64,000 nucleotides of DNA, from contig CAVZDU010000005.1 of assembly GCA_963774265.1 (NCBI GenBank), positions 448,001 to 512,000 on the forward strand. Direction: 5' to 3'. This DNA is from an uncultured Chloroflexia bacterium (GTDB lineage Bacteria; Chloroflexota; Anaerolineae; CG2-30-64-16). Each line of letters starts with the position of its first letter. Positions within the stretch are counted from its first letter, which is position 1. The notes beneath the pieces are model-generated. The model saw only the letters and a program-made list of their open reading frames with translations, made no database searches and was not told where the DNA came from. A program made the position numbers and the translations under genes. Positions 666 to 9,831 of the stretch are shown here, one piece after another.

Positions 666-3600
666 TCACATCCCGGCCAGATGCCGCGCCACGTTGATGA
701 ACAGGTGACGCCCGTCAGCTGTCATGAGCGGCGGGCCGGCCTGGAAGCCCCAAAGCAGGAAACGCCTCTCCCGCAAATCCTGCTGCACCAGGTTGTAGTG
801 CGTCTCGTCCGCGGGCTCGCGGCCGATCAGCAGTATACTGGCTGGCGGCTTCTCGACCCGGACGCCGACATGGGCCGTCTTGCCATAGACCCGGACAAGC
901 CGGTCCCGGCCCATCGGGATGCCGTATGGGCTGTGCCACACGTCGTTCACCGCATCTACAGCATAAGTGTACGCCTCGTTTCCGTGCCAGCCATTCGGAT
1001 AGCCGATGGCCAGCCCCGCCTTGCCGAAGAACGCGTAGCCACCCTCTCCAAGGCCAAGGATCGGTGTGGAGTACTGCAGCAAGGCACCCACCGCCGCGGA
1101 CGTGCCCCAGTCGGCCCCGTCGCCCGTCTCCGGTCCGATCACGATCAGGTCGTAGCTGCCCCACACGGTCTTGGCGACCTCAGCCATGGGGACAAGGTCG
1201 ACCGAATAAGAGCCCGCTTGGAGCAGTCTCTGGTAGGCCACCGCGGCCGGAAGGTTGTTCAACCAGATGTAGGCCACGCGCGGCCGCACTGAGAAGCCGC
1301 CCGTGCGATGCCGCACGAAGAGCTGATCGGAGTTATTCCTGCCCCAGCCGGTTGCCTTTACGACATACTGGCCGGGCAACAGTGCCTGAGTGAAGACTCC
1401 GCCATAGACCCCGTCGCCGGCCCTTCCGTCCATGTTCCGGCCGTCGTCGAAGAGCTGGAGCAGTTGCATCAAGTCCGAGTTTGGCCCCTTCACCAGCGCC
1501 CATACTTCCGCACCCGCGATCGGCTTCTCGTCAGACAGCACGACCAGGATCGGGATCTTCGCGCCGACGGTCCGTTCCTCAGGCGGCAGTCCGAAGCCCA
1601 GGTGCATGCTGGTTTGCGATCTGGCAGAGAGGATGAAGAGGTAGTTGGCGCACCCCTTGGCTTGTAGCTCCACCTTCCAGGGACCCCCGAGCGGATCCTG
1701 CACGCGGAACTGGTGGTGGGTGGCGTCCCGAATCTCCCGCACCTTCGGCGGATTGTGCTTGACCAGATTGCCGTCCGGGTCGGTGAGAATCATCTCGATG
1801 GAAACCGCGGGGTCGTCCCAGTTTGTCGTGAAGATCGCCTCGGGCAGCCCCTTTTCGACGGGGAGCTCGAAGATCACCGGCATCTCGCAGATGTAGCCGG
1901 TGCTCTCCCAGACCCGCTGCTGGTGGCCGTTTACCTCGCCCATAGCCTTGTAGATGTCGGCCAGACGGTTGGGGAGCGTGGTGGGCAGGTTGGGACCGGG
2001 CACGGCCGCCGGCGCCTCGGTTGCCGCGGCGTCGGCTGCGGCCGCCAGCGGCAAGATGTCCACGCCCGCCTGGAACGCGCGGCCGTCCGTGTCTGCCGCG
2101 ATATCACCCAGAAGCGCCGTATCCGCGTCGCGGCCGAGCGCCACCGTGTGCACCACCACCCGCGACGGTATGATCACGCCACCGACCGTCGCATCAGCCC
2201 AGTAGGGCGATACGTTCTCCATGCCGTCGCTCAGCAGCGCCAGGCTCCAGTCATGGTCTTCCTTACCCCGTGCGAGGAGTTCGTCATAGCCGAGCTTCGC
2301 GCCCGGGCCCAGCGCGGTCAGGTTGCCGGTCGTCAGCGCGTTGACCGCGGTCTTGGCCGCGTTCCATTCCGGATCGCCGGTGACGGTCGTCAGCCCGTAG
2401 TTAACCGCCGCGCTTGACTCAAAGGAGACTACGCCGATCATGTCGTCGACATTGGTGTGGTCGATGAACGCACGCGCGGCATTCTTCGCGGCCTCAAGCT
2501 TGTCATAATCGGCCATGCTCCCGGAGCGGTCGATCACCAGCACCTGGTCGGCGTTTAGCTTCGGCAGGTAGAATACGGCGCGCTTCTCGGTATCCGTTTG
2601 CGCGCCCAGCGTCACCTCCAGGTCATAGTAGTCCGCCGCAGGCTGCGTGTGTGCGCTGACGACGAGGAAGTGGGTGTCGAGGGAGCGATAGGCGGAGATT
2701 ACGGGGCTGTCCTGCCCGCCGATGCGCACTGTGAAGTCGCTTGCGGTGTAGGTGACCGGCGAGCTGCTGGGTGGCGTGGCGGTCTTCACCTGCACCAGGA
2801 TTTTGTCCGGATCGTTGAACGCGCCCGCGTTCGTGGGGTTGGTCTCAGTGGGCTGAAGGATGTCGAAGATCGGCGTGCAAGCCTGGTGACTGGACGCGTT
2901 GAAGTTGTCGGTCTCGCCCAGGGCGGGCTCATACTTGCCGTCTCGGTCTGTGTCCTCACAGCCATCCACCGAGCTGTCATTGTCGTTGTTGGCGTCCAGC
3001 TCCTTGCGCTGGCCATCGGAATCATGATCTGCGGTGCGCAGACTGTATGTGCCCGCGGTGTCGAACACATACTCCCGAAGGTCCTGTTTGTCCTGCACCC
3101 AGTCGTCGTCCGAATCCGCGTAGGCCGGCATAGTGTGGAAGCGATTCTGCTCGTCCCAGTCCATCACTCCGTCGCCGTCTGCGTCGGTCCAGATCCCGGG
3201 CTCATCCGAGCGAGGAGAGACAGAAGCTGGCACAGGTGGGACGTAGTAGCAGGTGATGCTCAACGAACTGTAGTTTTGCCACGTCGTGCCGCTCCAGGGG
3301 TCGAACAGCCGGATTTGCTGCGTACTATCGGCCAGGGTGCGGTAGCCGCCGATCACCGTCTGATGGCCGTTGAAGAAGCGCATGATCGGCCTGCTGGCAT
3401 CGATCCAGCCTGTCACCTGCGCGAAGGTCGGCTTGGCGTACGCGTAGTCGAAGCTGGCGCCGTTCAGCGCCCAGGACAGCATCTGGCCGCCATGGCTGCC
3501 GTCACCGCCGCACACACTGGTGGTGCGGTCGTGGCCGAGGTCACGCAGCGGGTTATTCTTCTCCCCAATATCGGCCAATGGGCTGCCCCAGTTCTCGAAC

Positions 3601-4961
3601 TGGTAGTACCCGATGCGATCCATGCTCAGATTGCCGCCGTAGTGCGTCACGATCATGGCGATGGATGCGCGGACGCAACTGTTCCGGCCGTGGGTGTAGA
3701 TCCCGTCCGGGTGCACCGCGTCCCATGCCTCTTCCTCCCCTGACGTCGCGGGGTTGCCCTCGTTGTCGCCGTCGAGACACAGCAGGGGGTTATCCTTCTT
3801 TTGGCGCAGCCATGTCATGGATAGCACGACATCAGGGCCGATGCTCAGGGCCTCCGCAGTGTCGCCTGCGGCCATAGCGCTGGTTACGGGGATCACCGTC
3901 ACGCTGAGGGGCGTCGACCAGGCGGACTGCAACGCGCCGAGGCGGCTCCGGACGCGCCACCAGAAGGCGCCACCGGGCAGCGGCGACGCAGGCGTGTAGT
4001 ATGGTTGGGTCAGCTCGACGTCGACCAACGGCGAGCTGAAGCCTGGGTCATTGTCGATCTGGAGCTGATAGGTTGCGCCGGGCACCAGCATCCAGCCCAG
4101 TGCGAAGCCATCGCTTGCCATGACCGCGCCATCGCCGACCGTGCTCCAGATGGAGCGCGGCACCGGGTTGGACGTGCCCGGGGTATGATCCTCCGGGCCG
4201 TAGGCGGCCCAGTCATCGGGGGAAAGATTGACGTGGCCGGGATAGAGGCCGATCGTTCGATTGGCGGGAAGCGGCGCGGACGCGTCCTGCGCGCCGGAGC
4301 CGACGTTGAAATCAACCCACCAGTCTGACCTCCACAGCCCGGCCGCGATCGCATCAGTGGCGCCCTCGCCGGGGGCCGCGCCGTAGGCCACGAAGTCCCG
4401 AATGGTCTGAGGGTCATGTGTTGATCCGGCATAGAGCGCGACCTGGTCGCTTTCCGGGTTGAACATGTCCACCAAACCGGGGGGTGAATGCAGCACGGCG
4501 CGGCCGTCGCCGAAGCTGTAGTCATCCGCGGCCGGGCCAAGCCCGTCGAAGTAAATCACCACGAAGCAGCCCGGCGGAATCCCCGGCAGGGCGGCCGGGA
4601 TAGTGTAGTTCCCGCCGCTCTGATTGCTCACCTGCCAGCCGCTGATGTCCGGACCGGACTCCGCGGTGGGTGCGACAAAGGATGGCGTTGCGGCCGAGCC
4701 GGCAACCGGGCCCGACCCCTTCATCACGAGGGGCAGATACAGCAGGTAGTTCGTTCCAACCGCGGACAACTCAACCCACTGGTGCTGCCCTGCAAGCGGA
4801 CGGGCCAGCACCTCGTTGAGATGGACCTCAGAAGCGCTGGTTGACATCTGATCGGCAGAGGCGGGGAAGCCGGGTGCGGCTGAGAGTGCCGGGGTCGAGC
4901 CCGCGGTGAGGAGACAGACGACGACAATCGAGCAGGCAAGTGTCGCGATTCTGATCTTCAT
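666..4961 (-). CDS. Large secreted multidomain protein: lamin-tail-like, FN3-like, C39/papain-like peptidase, DxDxDG Ca-binding repeats, vWA, CLCA-like C-terminal region
   Basis: Signal peptide; LNEV..WVEL..DISGWQ; NSCVRAS/NGHQTVIGGY/LFDPW triad; DADGDG, DSDDD, DHDSDG, DTDRDG; MIDAS DRSGS..T..LSDG; LFDDG..DG.AGDGVY; RBS aggagg. Confidence 0.8.
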   Translation of the reverse strand: MKIRIATLACSIVVVCLLTAGSTPALSAAPGFPASADQMSTSASEVHLNEVLARPLAGQHQWVELSAVGTNYLLYLPLVMKGSGPVAGSAATPSFVAPTAESGPDISGWQVSNQSGGNYTIPAALPGIPPGCFVVIYFDGLGPAADDYSFGDGRAVLHSPPGLVDMFNPESDQVALYAGSTHDPQTIRDFVAYGAAPGEGATDAIAAGLWRSDWWVDFNVGSGAQDASAPLPANRTIGLYPGHVNLSPDDWAAYGPEDHTPGTSNPVPRSIWSTVGDGAVMASDGFALGWMLVPGATYQLQIDNDPGFSSPLVDVELTQPYYTPASPLPGGAFWWRVRSRLGALQSAWSTPLSVTVIPVTSAMAAGDTAEALSIGPDVVLSMTWLRQKKDNPLLCLDGDNEGNPATSGEEEAWDAVHPDGIYTHGRNSCVRASIAMIVTHYGGNLSMDRIGYYQFENWGSPLADIGEKNNPLRDLGHDRTTSVCGGDGSHGGQMLSWALNGASFDYAYAKPTFAQVTGWIDASRPIMRFFNGHQTVIGGYRTLADSTQQIRLFDPWSGTTWQNYSSLSITCYYVPPVPASVSPRSDEPGIWTDADGDGVMDWDEQNRFHTMPAYADSDDDWVQDKQDLREYVFDTAGTYSLRTADHDSDGQRKELDANNDNDSSVDGCEDTDRDGKYEPALGETDNFNASSHQACTPIFDILQPTETNPTNAGAFNDPDKILVQVKTATPPSSSPVTYTASDFTVRIGGQDSPVISAYRSLDTHFLVVSAHTQPAADYYDLEVTLGAQTDTEKRAVFYLPKLNADQVLVIDRSGSMADYDKLEAAKNAARAFIDHTNVDDMIGVVSFESSAAVNYGLTTVTGDPEWNAAKTAVNALTTGNLTALGPGAKLGYDELLARGKEDHDWSLALLSDGMENVSPYWADATVGGVIIPSRVVVHTVALGRDADTALLGDIAADTDGRAFQAGVDILPLAAAADAAATEAPAAVPGPNLPTTLPNRLADIYKAMGEVNGHQQRVWESTGYICEMPVIFELPVEKGLPEAIFTTNWDDPAVSIEMILTDPDGNLVKHNPPKVREIRDATHHQFRVQDPLGGPWKVELQAKGCANYLFILSARSQTSMHLGFGLPPEERTVGAKIPILVVLSDEKPIAGAEVWALVKGPNSDLMQLLQLFDDGRNMDGRAGDGVYGGVFTQALLPGQYVVKATGWGRNNSDQLFVRHRTGGFSVRPRVAYIWLNNLPAAVAYQRLLQAGSYSVDLVPMAEVAKTVWGSYDLIVIGPETGDGADWGTSAAVGALLQYSTPILGLGEGGYAFFGKAGLAIGYPNGWHGNEAYTYAVDAVNDVWHSPYGIPMGRDRLVRVYGKTAHVGVRVEKPPASILLIGREPADETHYNLVQQDLRERRFLLWGFQAGPPLMTADGRHLFINVARHLAGM

Positions 4962-5093
4962 GAGAGGAGCCTCCTGTGGACACTACCAAACGGTCGACGG
5001 AGCATCAAGACGGTCAGCGATGGGATGGTGCGATGTAAGGTGTAACAGGGAGAAGAACCCCTGGGGAGGGGTCAGGTCGGTGGTCGTTGAGTG

Positions 5094-5243
5094 TTATGAT
5101 TTCCCTTGGGTGAGCGACTTCTGATAGGCCTTCCAGCCGGGGCACCAGCTGGTGTGCCACTTCCACAGCCGCGCCATCAGCGTCTTCGGATTGGCCTCAG
5201 CCTTCTTGCGAATCGGGCAATCTGCGCAGCGAGGTTCGGACAT
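5094..5243 (-). CDS. 49-aa Cys/Trp-rich small protein (absent from the ORF track)
   Basis: MSEPRCADCPIRKKAEANPKTLMARLWKWHTSWCPGWKAYQKSLTQGKS*, with strong SD gaaggagg 5 nt before the ATG. Confidence 0.75.
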   Translation of the reverse strand: MSEPRCADCPIRKKAEANPKTLMARLWKWHTSWCPGWKAYQKSLTQGKS

Positions 5244-5270
5244 GCTGACCTCCTTCGAAAATGATCTCGA

Positions 5271-6512
5271 TTACCCGGTTGGGACGGCGGCTGGCACCAG
5301 TTGGACCTGATAGCCCAGCTTCTCCAGGCGTTTGACGGCCCGCCGCTTCACAGCTTCACGGTCGCGCTCGTCGAAGTAGTTGCCGCCTAAGTCCTCGTAC
5401 TTGGTTTGCCGAGTGATCAAGTAGTAACCGGTGACCAGCAAGCTGTGCCCGACGGCCATTAGCGCCCGTTGTTTGCCCCGCCGGGCCGCCAGGCGCCCAT
5501 AGAGCGCCTGGAAGTACTTGTGCTTGGTGCGGGCAGCGCCGTGCGCCGCTTCCACCAAGGCTCGCCGCAGCCAGGGACTGCCTTTGCGGGTCTTGCCACT
5601 GTAGCGTTTGCCGGCACTTTCGTTGTTGCCGGGACACATGCCCGCCCACGAAGCCAGATGCTCCGCATCCTCGAACGGCTGCAGGTCGGCCCCAATCTCA
5701 GCGACGACGATCTCCGCAATCCGCTGGTTGATCCCCGGCAGCGAGTCCCAGGCCGCCAGCGCCGGCGCAAAAGGGTGCATCTGCTCCGCGATCTGCTGGT
5801 CGAGCCGGTCGATGGCCTCGTCCAAGAAGTCGATGTGGCTCAGGTGCTGCGCCAACATGAAGCGATGATGCGCCTGCACGCGTCCACTTAGCGCCTTCTG
5901 CAGCAGGTCCAGCTTGTCCCGCAGGCGACCCTTGGCCAGCTCGGCTAACACGGCTGGATCGGCCTGGCCTTGCACGATCTGATCCAGCATCGCTCGTCCG
6001 CTGACACCCATCACATCGGTCGCCACGCTCGCCAGCTTGATGTTGGCGTCTTCCAGCACCTTCTGCACCCGATTGATCTCACTGACGCGCTCATCGCCCA
6101 GCTTGGTGCGGTAGCGAGTCAGATCGCGTAGCGCACGTAGCTCAGCCGAAGGAATGAAGCTCCCTTTGAGCAGCCCGTGCCGCAGCAGATCCGCAATCCG
6201 CTCCGCATCTTGCACATCCGTCTTGCGGCCAGCTAACGCCTTGATGTGCTCTGCATTGACCACCAGAATGGCAAACCGCCCGTCGAGCAGGTTGTACACC
6301 GGCTTCCAGTACACCCCGGTGCTCTCCATCGCCACGTGCGTGACCCCAAGGCCCTGCAACCATTCCGCCAGTGCTTCCAGGTTCTCGGTCAAGGTATCAA
6401 ACGTGCGGGTCTCCTTCACCGATTGCCCATCCGGCCCAGGCACGATCGCACACGCCACCACCGTGCGCTTGTGCACATCGATCCCGCAGCACCGCTCATA
6501 GACCACTTGCAT
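5271..6512 (-). CDS. IS110 family DEDD transposase / bridge recombinase
   Basis: GIDVHK, AMESTG, KTDVQD (DEDD) and C-terminal NESAGK serine motif; start MQVVYERCC with RBS ggagg. Confidence 0.95.
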   Translation of the reverse strand: MQVVYERCCGIDVHKRTVVACAIVPGPDGQSVKETRTFDTLTENLEALAEWLQGLGVTHVAMESTGVYWKPVYNLLDGRFAILVVNAEHIKALAGRKTDVQDAERIADLLRHGLLKGSFIPSAELRALRDLTRYRTKLGDERVSEINRVQKVLEDANIKLASVATDVMGVSGRAMLDQIVQGQADPAVLAELAKGRLRDKLDLLQKALSGRVQAHHRFMLAQHLSHIDFLDEAIDRLDQQIAEQMHPFAPALAAWDSLPGINQRIAEIVVAEIGADLQPFEDAEHLASWAGMCPGNNESAGKRYSGKTRKGSPWLRRALVEAAHGAARTKHKYFQALYGRLAARRGKQRALMAVGHSLLVTGYYLITRQTKYEDLGGNYFDERDREAVKRRAVKRLEKLGYQVQLVPAAVPTG

Positions 6513-6519
6513 CGTGCGC

Positions 6520-6690
6520 CTCCGCTTGCTCGTGATCGCCCCAGCGGAGTGCCTGATATGCGAAGAGTCTCCTTCGCGTACTCCCCCAAATTGGAGGGCC
6601 ACAGTCTACGGTGCCTGCAGGCACTCGAGCCAAACTCCCTTGCGGACTCGTGGCACCAGGTAATTCATCCGACTTCATGCCAGGGCGTCT
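6520..6690 (-). ncRNA. Candidate IS110 bridge RNA
   Basis: Lies downstream of an internal promoter; several hairpins; segments matching target (aagggag) and donor (cgaaggag) junctions in the expected order. Confidence 0.6.
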
Positions 6691-6695
6691 CCACC

Positions 6696-6723
6696 ATTCT
6701 ACGCCCCCATTTTCATCCGTCAA
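6696..6723 (-). promoter_or_regulatory. Sigma70-type promoter inside the IS110 left end
   Basis: TTGACG-N16-TAGAAT on the minus strand; the spacer contains a G homopolymer. Confidence 0.55.
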
Positions 6724-6765
6724 CGGTGAGCCAACGGCTAATCGACAACTCCCTTCTTGCTGAAC

Positions 6766-6771
6766 ATTATA
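6766..6771 (-). promoter_or_regulatory. Host -10 box, probably the original promoter of the 49-aa gene
   Basis: TATAAT 13 nt outside the IS110 left junction core; no clear -35. Confidence 0.45.
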
Positions 6772-6978
6772 CACGCATAGGGCCAAAGCATCACAACCCT
6801 AAGAAGACTCTCTGCCCAGCCTCCTGCGTTTGCGTGCTTTGGGAAAAATGGTGATTCCCCCGGCCGCTTGCTCACCCCGCCACGCGCGTTATATACTGCA
6901 CCGCGTCCCGCTCCTTCCTTGCCCCGCTGCGCGGACCAAAACAGAGAGTACGACGAACTGCATCACATAGGAGGAATC

Positions 6979-9831
6979 GTGACGGATCAGCCTGTCTACA
7001 CATTGCCTGTGAGAGACGCATTGGGGGAGTTTGATGTCCAACTGGAGACCGGTCTGACCAGCCAGGAAGTCCAACTCCGCCGGGAACGCTATGGCCTAAA
7101 CGAGCTACAGGAGAAACCGCGGCCGGGCTTCCTGAAACTGCTATTCGATCAACTCAACAATTTCCTGATCATCATCCTGATCGTTGCGGCCGTGATATCG
7201 CTGCTGCTGGGCGAGACGATCGATGCACTGGCGATCCTGGCAATCGTGGTGCTGAATTCCGTCCTCGGCGTCGTCCAGGAGTCGAAGGCCGAGCAAGCGC
7301 TCGCTGCGCTCAAGAAGATGGCCTCTCCCAACGCCCAGGTGTTGCGCGATGGCCTGCAGGTCACACTCCCGGCCCGTGAGCTGGTTCCCGGCGACATCGT
7401 GCTGTTGGAGGCTGGGAACTACGTGCCGGCGGATCTGCGCCTTGTGGAGAGCGTCAATCTCAAAGTCGAGGAGGCTTCGCTCACCGGCGAGTCGGTGCCT
7501 GTCAATAAGGATGCCCGCATGGTGTTCGATGCCGATATCCCCCTCGGCGACCGCAAGAATTCAGCGTTCATGGCCACCGTGGTGACCTACGGCCGCGGCA
7601 AGGGGTTGGTCACCTCCACGGGCATGACCACTCAGATCGGCATGATCGCTGAAATGCTTCAATCCTACGAAGATGAAGCGACGCCCCTGCAGGAGAAACT
7701 GGCGCAGCTCGGTAAAACATTGGGCATCGTCTCACTCGCCATCTGTGGTTTCATCTTCCTGTACGGCGTGATTCGTGACACGAATCCCGGCATGATCTTT
7801 CAGGAGGGCATCAGCGGTTACCTCGCCGCGCACGAAAAAGATCTCATCGGCCTGTTCATGACCGCAGTGAGTTTGGCTATTGCAGCCGTGCCTGAAGGGT
7901 TGCCCGCAGTCGTCACCATCTGCCTGGCGCTCGGCATGCAGCGAATGGTCACCCGCCATGCGCTGATCCGCAAGCTGCCGGCAGTTGAGACCCTGGGTTG
8001 CGCGACGGTGATCTGCTCCGACAAGACCGGCACCCTCACTCAGAACGAGATGACGGTGGTGGCCGGTTGGGCGGGCGGTCACGCTTTCCAGGTCACCGGC
8101 GAAGGTTACAACCCCGAAGGTCAGTTCTACCGGACTGAGACGCCGTTTGCACCGGCCAATGACCCGGCGACCTCGATGCTCTTGCAGGGCGCGTTGCTAT
8201 GCAATGATGCGAAGCTGGAGCCGAGCGGTGAGGAGTCCGGCGAGCGTACCTGGCGTATGATGGGCGATCCCACCGAGGGTGCGCTGGTGGTGGCCGCGGC
8301 CAAGGCGGGTCTGTGGCGCGCCGACATGGAGAACAGCATGCCGCGCGTGGCCGAAATCCCCTTCGACTCTGACCGCAAGCGGATGACCACCATCCATCAG
8401 GTGGGCGACCTGGGCTTACGCGTTTCCGACTTCGGGGATGCCAGGACACCTGCTCCTGGGCAGACGCCACAATCCTGGCTGGCGTTTGTTAAGGGCGCGC
8501 CCGACATTGTGTTGGAGTACTGCGACGACATCATGCTGGATGACCGTGTGGCGCCTCTGACCGCGGAGTTGCGCGGGGAAATCCTGGCGGCCAACACCAG
8601 CATGGCGCGCCAGGCGCTGCGCGTGCTGGGCCTGGCGTGCCGGCCGCTGGACGCCGTGCCCGATGAATCCACATCGGACGAAATCGAGCGCAACCTGACC
8701 TTCCTGGGCCTGACGGGCATGATCGACCCGGCCCGGCCCGAGGTCAAGGTGGCCGTGGACGTCGCGAAGCAGGCGGGTCTGAAGAGCATCATGATTACGG
8801 GCGACTACCGCGATACGGCCCAGGCCATTGCGGGCCAGATCGGCATGCTCACCAAGGGTGGCCAGGTGCTCACCGGCGCTCAACTCGATGCTATGGATGA
8901 CGATGAGCTGAACGCAATGGTTGACCACCTGGATGTTTGCGCCCGTGTGTCTCCGCAGCACAAGATGCGCATCGTTGAGGCCCTCAAGACTCGCGGCCAC
9001 ATCGTGGCCATGACGGGCGACGGCGTGAACGACGCGCCGGCGTTGAAGCGCGCCAACATCGGCGTGGCCATGGGCATCACCGGCACTGATGTGACCAAGG
9101 AGACCGCCGACATGGTGCTGACCGACGACAACTACGCCAGCATCGTCTCGGCCATCGAAGAAGGCCGCATTATCTACTCCAACATCCGCAAGTTCGTGTT
9201 CTACCTGATCTCGTGCAATATCGGCGAGATCCTGATCATCTTCCTGGCGATGTTGGCGGGCCTACCCATCCCATTGCGGCCGATCCAGCTCCTGTGGCTG
9301 AACCTGGTGACCGATGGCGCGCCAGCCTTGGCGCTGGGTTTGGAAAAGGGCGATCCCGACATCATGCAGCGACCGCCGCGGCCGACCAAGGAGCCGGTGA
9401 TCAATCGTGAGATGCTGCTGGGTGTCGCCGTTCAGGCCATCGCCATGACCTCAGCCGTGTTAGCGGCCTATCTTATCGCGGGCGCTCGTCCGGGCGCAGA
9501 CGCCAACGATCCCATGCTGCCCAAGTGGCAGACCATCGCGTTCACGACGCTGGTCATGTCCGAGCTGCTGCGGGCGTACACGGCACGCTCCGAGCGCTAC
9601 GCGCTGCTCAAGATCGGGGTGTTCGGCAACAAGTGGATGCAATATGCCGTGGGTGCGTCTCTGATCCTGCTGCTGTTGGTGATCTACGTGCCGTTCTTGC
9701 AGTCTGTCTTCGGCACGGTGGCCTTGAACCTCGGCGATTGGCTGATGATGGCGCCGTTTATCCTGCTGGCCTCGGTCGCAGCCGAGCTGACCAAGGCCTA
9801 CCTGCGTGCGCGCAGCGCGAAGGCCTCTTGA
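6979..9831 (+). CDS. Cation-transporting P-type ATPase, type IIA (Ca2+-ATPase-like)
   Basis: [35 protein letters not shown]; GTG start after aggagg. Confidence 0.95.

Follow-up and report, generated by a model that had tools for sequence, protein, structure and literature searches.

An IS110-family insertion sequence of a Chloroflexia bacterium lies at Shine-Dalgarno sequences and carries guide-like words that follow its target and its own end

In a stretch of 64,000 nucleotides (nt) from an uncultured Chloroflexia bacterium (contig CAVZDU010000005.1, positions 448,001 to 512,000; hereafter the window), an insertion sequence of 1499 bp occupies positions 5250..6748 of the minus strand, between the Shine-Dalgarno (SD) sequence and the start codon of a conserved gene of 49 amino acids (aa). 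We consider, with a probability of roughly 0.85, that it is an active member of the IS110 family which moves by RNA-guided site-specific recombination and whose guide is aimed at the SD sequence.

On the minus strand, the sequence across the left junction is TATAAT(6771-6766) gttcagcaagaaGGGAG(..6749)|TTGTCG(6748..), for which a longer reading of the element's start is TTGTCGATTAGCC, and the right junction is cattttcgaaGGAG(..5250)|gtcagc ATG(5243-5241), for which a longer reading of the element's end is ATCATTTTCGAAGGAG; the right-hand GGAG is counted here as the element's own. Both junctions are exactly as an earlier note, made from the letters alone, had written them when it placed an IS110 element within an SD sequence at 5243-6771. 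The host SD sequence, AAGGGAG (6749..6755, minus), is made up of the left half of the target and the core, according to the left junction and to the empty site described below. The element consists of a non-coding left end of 236 nt (6513..6748), a recombinase gene of 413 aa (5271..6512) with its own GGAGG 7 nt 5' of the ATG, and a right end of 21 nt (5250..5270), all on the minus strand. By our reading of the junction, the last 8 nt of this right end, CGAAGGAG (5250-5257), are the SD sequence that now stands 6 nt upstream of the host ATG. The note had claimed this new SD sequence and the sense orientation of the element, and both hold.

We found five matches to the element in the source genome (5.5 Mb, 10 contigs): the window copy, a 100% identical copy on contig 10, a 99% identical copy on contig 3, an 82% relative (C10b) directly upstream of the contig-10 copy in head-to-tail arrangement, and a left-end fragment of 147 nt on contig 2. 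The first three have intact frames, and their similarity ends at identical bases, which define the ends of the element. One of the two further copies reads ttttcaaGGGAG|IS|gtttcATG, followed by a 164-codon frame starting MRLLVTGSSG, and the other reads tcatcaaGGGAG|IS|tcatccATG, followed by an lgt-like gene. The flanks of the three copies are unrelated outside the target word, and the alignment of flanks that the earlier note had proposed places each copy after an AAGGGAG-type word and before an ATG.

The empty allele, which it had also proposed to look for, was found uninterrupted in a genome of the same genus (G002) for two of the three copies, with a single GGGAG or GGGGG at each site. For the window locus, the empty site reads tgtataat..ctgaagggag|GCCGCCATGTCCGAATC (also written tgtataatatccccactgaagggag GCCGCC ATGTCCGAATC), with a single GAAGGGAG immediately 5' of GCCGCC ATG. 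For the lgt locus, it reads ttcatcaaggggg|TCGTCCATGAACCC (also written ttcatcaaggggg TCGTCC ATGAACCC). The core was therefore present once before insertion, the GGAG beside the ATG is borne by the element, and there is no target duplication beyond a short core, as is expected in the IS110 family. A repeat search of the element ends found no conserved terminal inverted repeats. The sole end-to-end inverted pair is subterminal, 11 nt long (window 5267-5277 and 6735-6745, 10/11 complementary, at distances of 3 nt (left) and 17 nt (right) from the element ends); by eye it fails in the 82% relative C10b and is therefore probably due to chance.

The recombinase matches the Pfam families PF01548 (E = 1e-32) and PF02371 (E = 4e-20), that is, an N-terminal DEDD RuvC-like domain followed by a C-terminal Tnp domain. 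It also scores 274.8 bits, with a cut-off of 140, against NCBIfam NF033542 ('IS110 family RNA-guided transposase'). When it was compared with the IS621 transposase (PDB 8wt6, E = 7e-17), the motifs GID, E..TG, KTD..DA and ES were aligned; the acidic motifs and ES are conserved, and their residues presumably keep the roles that they have in this family. These matches point to an IS110-family RNA-guided recombinase element, in agreement with the earlier note.

Placement before start codons recurs among close relatives. The nearest clade (76-100% DNA identity) comprises 16 insertions with a right junction: three in the source genome, 11 in one family relative, genome G024 (ten of these places coincide with fetched loci and were counted once), one in genome G048 and one at locus L013. 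For fourteen of the 16, an ATG follows after 3-9 nt, and the frame which it opens runs for 49 to more than 498 codons, about 38 codons being visible for one of them (L120); this distance to the start codon is one that the earlier note had proposed to measure. All are sense to the host gene, and in the source genome all three copies lie between the SD sequence and the start codon. In the family relative G024, the 11 insertions are at 11 different genes. The background in the source genome is low: an ATG that starts a frame of 60 codons or more stands 3-8 nt downstream of just 36 of the 303 AAGGGAG sites (12%), and for AGGAG or AAGGGAG sites the share so placed is 9-12%. Against 12% per site, 14/16 has a binomial p of about 1e-11, so that the left word alone does not account for the placement.

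We therefore turn to the left end (6513..6748, minus), the predicted template of a guide (bridge) RNA. For this purpose, 79 related loci were fetched; the left end is conserved in 33 of them (nhmmer), which were aligned, and co-variation was tested over 22-25 distinct elements. The guide tests omit L066 (the same element as L007) and L021, L022, L032 and L047 (left end poorly aligned). In the left end, two words stand in the contexts CCG-CAAGGGAG-UUUGG and ACG-CGAAGGAG-AC. The first, CAAGGGAG, together with UU, the element's first two bases, forms the candidate left-target guide (6633..6642, minus) and has the same sense as the left flanks. Across elements, this guide agrees with the left flank at 3.5 of 6 non-core positions, compared with 1.9 for mismatched partners, and 0 of 5000 shuffles reach the observed value; the junction column is one base off in eight loci, so that this match is understated. 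For the two bases after the guide and the element's first bases, 2 of 5000 shuffles reach the observed agreement. The second word, CGAAGGAG (6569..6576, minus), is a same-sense copy of the element's last 8 nt and the candidate left-donor guide; it co-varies with the right end at 5.48 of 6 positions (2.84 for mismatched partners; 0/5000 shuffles). A non-coding end whose guides co-vary with target and donor, as in the IS110 family, is thus found for the left halves of both.

The words themselves differ between elements. In relatives whose guide equals the flank away from SD sequences, the common word is CAAATTAG (L040), TCGGAATC (L033) or TTGTCAAG (L049), and in L041 guide and flank share ATAGGAG. 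The right ends of the clade have the common pattern ..ATTTTC followed by 7 nt. In C10b the right end is ..TTTTCAAGGGAG, donor guide and right end both read CAAGGGAG, and the first (target) guide word is GUAAGGAG, which is identical in the contig-2 fragment. This fragment (G000:C2:601493-601639) has the guide region only, is 75% identical and lacks a recombinase gene; it is preceded by ctggAAGGAG and ends abruptly after the donor-guide word. Among distant relatives, the left flanks of L015, L018, L021, L028, L031 and L071 resemble the right end of another element.

On the other side of the target loop, a k-mer scan for the right-target guide pointed to the segment 5' of a capping hairpin. In the window this is AUGAAUUACCU (6658..6668, minus; position by alignment), antisense to the core and the right flank, which predicts AG|GTAATTCAT. 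The fit is good in some relatives, with 8/9 in L033 and six contiguous positions in L024, L071 and L026. Another candidate, the variable 6 nt before a conserved UGU, was ruled out by eye since it has no complementarity to right flanks. The earlier note had suggested that the element is programmed for ribosome-binding sites: this stands for the left half of the target, where CAAGGGAG co-varies with the flank, and the start codon may perhaps be read as well.

Co-variation suggests that three helices would organise this RNA: the capping hairpin, a long stem and, with weaker support than these two, a short lower stem of the target loop. Because three sequences of the MAFFT alignment were one column out of register, RNAalifold obtained almost no consensus from it, and the structure was then tested by anchored per-sequence comparisons. 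Over 24 elements, the hairpin capping the target loop, GGUGCC-ACGAG-UCC (6644..6657, minus), has 95 of the 96 cells of its 4 pairs paired, and the compensatory changes GC>AU, GC>UA and CG>UA occur. The long-range stem, whose strands are GAGUGCCUG (5' strand, 6618..6626) and CAGGCACUC (3' strand, 6547..6555, both minus), encloses the donor loop; it is supported by folds and by co-variation, the longest helix averaging 8.6 bp with the true partner and 5.9 bp with the partners of other elements. The lower stem is paired in 21 of 24 elements, against 329 of 552 mismatched partners. CAGGCACUCC was considered as a right-donor guide and ruled out, since it is the 3' strand of the co-varying long stem. 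Folded as a single sequence, the left end does not surpass its shuffled versions (z = -0.19). Within the left end lies a promoter-like TTGACG-16-TAGAAT (6696..6723, minus; 10/12 matches), whose TAGAAT is conserved in close relatives; the promoter-like scan found two sites where 0.4 were expected.

We propose the following mechanism. The left end would encode a two-loop guide RNA. One side of the target loop, CAAGGGAG+UU, would have the sense of the host SD sequence and of the element's first bases and would pair with the strand opposite the SD sequence; one side of the donor loop, CGAAGGAG, would correspond to the element's own right end on a presumably circular donor. Recombination inside the common ..GGAG would put the element directly after the SD sequence and sense to the gene. 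The host ATG would retain an SD sequence 5-6 nt upstream (GAAGGAG here, AAGGGAG in relatives) because the right end of the element is itself SD-like. The recombinase gene and the host gene would then follow each other, the latter in distal position, without a terminator-like site in between, and the host gene may continue to be expressed. The 49-aa gene starts 20 nt after the recombinase stop codon, and no terminator-like site was found in window 4900-7000. Such insertion sites may be nearly harmless, as the earlier note supposed; the downstream frames are intact. A rebuilt junction would again be a target, which would explain the tandem pair on contig 10, where the contig-10 copy occupies precisely the right junction of C10b, whichever of the two inserted first.

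Several observations weigh against this proposal. A scan of 5100-6900 with E up to 1 gave no Rfam match for the left end, and the guides of each loop stand in the order opposite to the one given for IS621 in the accessible text (PMC11208160). Over all loci, the right-target guide agrees weakly with the right flank (2.32/7 vs 1.79; 93 of 5000 shuffles reach the observed value), and at the element's own three sites the right-flank guide pairs by only 2 nt beside the core (GT in two of three). A guide for the element's left end (right-donor guide) was looked for in the left end and not found. Two of the 16 nearest-clade insertions are not at a usable start, L115 preceding an ATG with a 5-codon frame and L106 no start at all, and the other groups with SD-like guides are mixed, L019 and L042 being at starts and L041, L035, L018 and L024 not. 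The source assembly is 84% complete in 10 contigs, with the tandem pair at a contig end. No RNA, circle junction or excision was observed; the public runs consist of contigs alone (highest share of sampled words in any run, 0.38), with no joint listed at the element ends, and the contigs of runs X1-X4 show related elements, but none of these contigs spans the element or an empty site, so that they are uninformative on circles and excision.

We also weighed three other explanations, one of which rivals only the claim that the start codon is read. The guide might read the SD-like left half only, the nearness of start codons coming from later selection, and we give this somewhat less than even odds. 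Selection would have removed insertions at the roughly 90% of AGGAG-type sites that lie inside genes, and the remaining non-coding sites would mostly be true SD sequences. Indeed, when open frames of 150 codons or more stand in for genes, 59-68% of the motif sites that fall outside them are an SD sequence with an ATG-initiated open reading frame (ORF) (AGGAG 1172 vs 549; AAGGGAG 42 vs 25); under a crude selection-only model of about 0.65 per site, 14/16 has a probability of roughly 0.05 and is therefore only mildly unusual. The poor fit of the right-flank guide to the actual sites, and the exceptions L106 and L115, which show that non-start sites are usable, point the same way. However, C precedes the ATG in 11 of 14 start sites (CATG), against a background of 44% (p = 0.009), and the spacing GGAG-N6-ATG occurs in 8 of 14, against 25% (p = 0.011). 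The 5' guide starts with AUG in four of six elements of the SD-targeting clade, placed to meet the CAT 5-7 nt from the core, and the IS900 kind has CATG in its consensus with variable spacing (accessible text of PMC8141618) and UUCAUG in its guide region. No recognisable gene was seen to be interrupted by any of the 16 insertions, the surroundings of L106 and L115 being unannotated.

Alternatively, a protein-guided transposase with a sequence preference might have produced the GGAG at both ends as an ordinary 4-bp target-site duplication, the SD-like words of the left end being coincidental. One GGGAG in the empty site and a GGAG at both junctions would fit such a duplication, but the recombinase scores above the curated cut-off of a DEDD/IS110 RNA-guided family, and the only inverted pair near the ends is the subterminal one of this copy. 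The left end mirrors the right end's last 8 nt rather than 4 alone, and the two vary together; the flank word is likewise mirrored and varies between elements (0/5000 shuffles). We regard a duplication as very improbable. We give equally little credence to the idea that the copies are inert relics and that the pattern comes from one old regional duplication and not from repeated targeting. The source genome has just three copies, and the public-run contigs, themselves uninformative on both, show neither circle nor excision. Against this, the copies are 99-100% identical, have intact frames and resemble each other in their flanks by the target word only; both sites examined in G002 are without the element, and the family relative has inserted at 11 different genes.

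SD targeting is already known in IS900, so the behaviour is not new for the IS110 family. Doran et al. (1997) reportedly announced in their title that IS900 is aimed at translation initiation signals. A 2021 genome study, in its accessible text, gives the IS900 target motif as CATGNNNNNNTCTCCTT and describes an opposite-strand frame, hed, without its own ribosome-binding site and start (PMC8141618). Using a 24-nt motif given there (PMC8141618), we searched 201 genomes of one genus; seven of them carry IS900-like elements, G233 alone having seven copies. In the host sense, all 14 junctions read AAGGA|N3-6 ATG, with ORFs of at least 60 aa in 11, so that the IS900 kind likewise leaves an SD core beside the host ATG. 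Its guide region reads UUUCAUGU - hairpin - GAAGGAGAU, then AUUGAGAGAU - hairpin - GUAAGGA, and includes UUCAUG; GAAGGAGA pairs with TCTCCTT of the published motif, as does GAAGGAGAU. The same-sense guide lies 5' and the antisense guide 3', which is the IS621 order.

The IS900 kind and the clade studied here thus share insertion between the SD sequence and the start codon (3/3 copies and 14/16 of the clade here) and, in the target loop, an AAGGAG-like 3' guide with a 5' guide toward the start codon. They differ in that the IS900-like recombinase is antisense to the host gene, whereas it is sense here in all copies. A 486-codon hed-like frame spans the opposite strand of the IS900-like element, whereas the longest listed here is of 202 aa, and the same-sense guides are on the 3' side of both loops here (window 6633-6668 and 6547-6626). 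The host phylum is also different (IS900: Mycobacterium), and a tblastn of the window recombinase against the IS900-like element gave no match at 1e-3. In the way the target-loop guides face the gene, the two kinds agree, and it is the body of the element alone that appears turned round. L082, from a Mycobacterium genome assembled from a metagenome, was considered as IS900-like and ruled out, its guide and flank reading ..TTTAG and ..CTTAG.

IS621, whose pairing rules involve a bridge RNA with same-sense guides on the 5' side of the loops (Durrant et al. 2024, accessible text of PMC11208160), has the same two protein domains and a non-coding left end upstream of the recombinase gene. The guide RNA predicted here would, like that of IS621, have two loops, each with a same-sense guide of about 8 nt including the core, and two further nt after the target guide that match the element's first bases (as far as the same text goes, PMC11208160); the absence of target duplication beyond the core is also common to both. 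Unlike IS621, whose natural target is a repetitive extragenic palindromic (REP) element according to the accessible part of a 2006 paper (PMC1525189), the element here targets an SD sequence. Its core ends AG within GGAG, whereas a CT core for IS621 is what the accessible part of PMC11208160 suggests. The long-range stem enclosing the donor loop and the promoter-like site wholly inside the left end are further differences.

The same 2006 paper, in its accessible part, states that the targets of IS117 and IS900 resemble the circle junction (PMC1525189). Likewise, the target here (xAAGGGAG + N5 + CATG) resembles the joined ends CGAAGGAG|TTGTC.AT., and most clade members have ..AG|N5 CATG; unlike in that account, the likeness is traced here to two separate guide words of the left end. 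Many right ends of the clade are SD-like (AGGAG, GGAGAG, AGAAGAG) even where the target word is not (L015, L018, L025, L031, L069, L072, L076), and nearly all left ends have CATG at bases 6-9, so that joined ends would form SD-N6-ATG; no conserved frame follows, because hairpin lengths vary. In a sediment-metagenome contig of run X1, at a loose end at window 6755, a right-end-like ..CTATTTTC (also given ..GGCTATTTTC) is joined to AAGGGAG|TTG, which may reflect related elements in tandem or else the circle junction of one.

What appears new here is the sense orientation, the reversed guide order and the explanation at the level of guides, the last of which we did not find in the literature searched. 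Our search, to which supplements were not visible, turned up no paper tracing SD targeting to a bridge or seek RNA. As far as we are aware, Durrant Supplementary Data 2 (target motifs per guide) and Supplementary Figures 2-3 of the IS900 paper may already show SD guides. In their accessible texts, PMC11187229 mentions a ribosome-binding site for a cargo gene only, PMC11208160 does not mention IS900, and a 2026 preprint mentions the SD sequence for a riboswitch only.

We further propose, as a tentative and rather doubtful extension, that the clade's two target guides together would read the two signals universal to bacterial gene starts, the SD sequence (3' guide, AAGGGAG) and the start codon (5' guide, CU.AC by the core and AUG against C-AT), with a spacer between them that could stay unpaired. 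This would be the RNA-to-gene geometry of the IS900 kind with a flipped body, and would define a general 'gene-start homing' class within IS110, reached in at least two distant branches. With the body flipped relative to the IS900 kind, the guide RNA and recombinase genes would ride the host promoter, and the host gene would be kept behind a portable SD sequence. If so, SD-like right ends and N5-CATG left ends in clade members with other targets would be a trace of ancestry. In a recombinase tree of 27 rows, which leaves out the sequences below 300 aa (L031, L072, L076, L079, L080 and L082), SD-like guides are spread over four groups; the backbone is unresolved, so that the groups do not demonstrate separate origins.

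A guide RNA in which the SD sequence, and perhaps the start codon, is spelled would provide a sequence-level reason for a habit of IS900 reported since 1997, visible in two distant branches of the family. Here nature would have directed a set of guides to a word that is short, degenerate and abundant and not to a unique site, which bears on the off-targets of bridge recombinases when these serve as tools. For annotation, such elements make operons of recombinase and host gene, as well as tandem stacks, which are mistakable for assembly errors or gene disruptions. The reversed guide order would mean that the orientation of the IS110 gene is not tied to the geometry of recombination.

The 49-aa host gene (5094..5243, minus) encodes a protein with Cys-x2-Cys ... 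WCPGW and without a Pfam or NCBIfam match. The gene, which the earlier note had proposed, is conserved at full length (64-86% protein identity) at eight loci of seven related genomes, each time after an AGGAG-type site. Its -10-like TATAAT (6766..6771, minus) lies 10 nt upstream of AAGGGAG and is conserved, with the upstream GGTTG.., at the G002 empty site; it is not listed as a full promoter in the consensus scan. Downstream of the gene lies that of a secreted-looking protein of 1431 aa (window 666-4961, minus), and a divergent P-type ATPase-like gene of 987 aa occupies window 6868-9831 (plus).

We noted several further details. At window 6743-6748, the window copy starts TTGTCG and the copies G000:C10 and G000:C3 start TTGCTG, a TC/CT swap at bases 4-5; the TTGTC start is common to the window copy and C10b. 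In C10b, the variable word that precedes UGU, GCUGAC, is exactly complementary to GTCAGC, the right flank at the site of the window copy, and together these two likenesses may possibly be a trace of exchange between window-type and C10b-type elements. In L115 (G024:C2), the insertion precedes ATG GTG AAA TAC GGC TGA, a 5-codon frame, and the site may be either a leader peptide or not a gene start. In L016 and L017, a 59% relative, runs of CGAACG in the left end and GCAGAGCAGAGCAG after the right end make the boundaries not definable from two copies.

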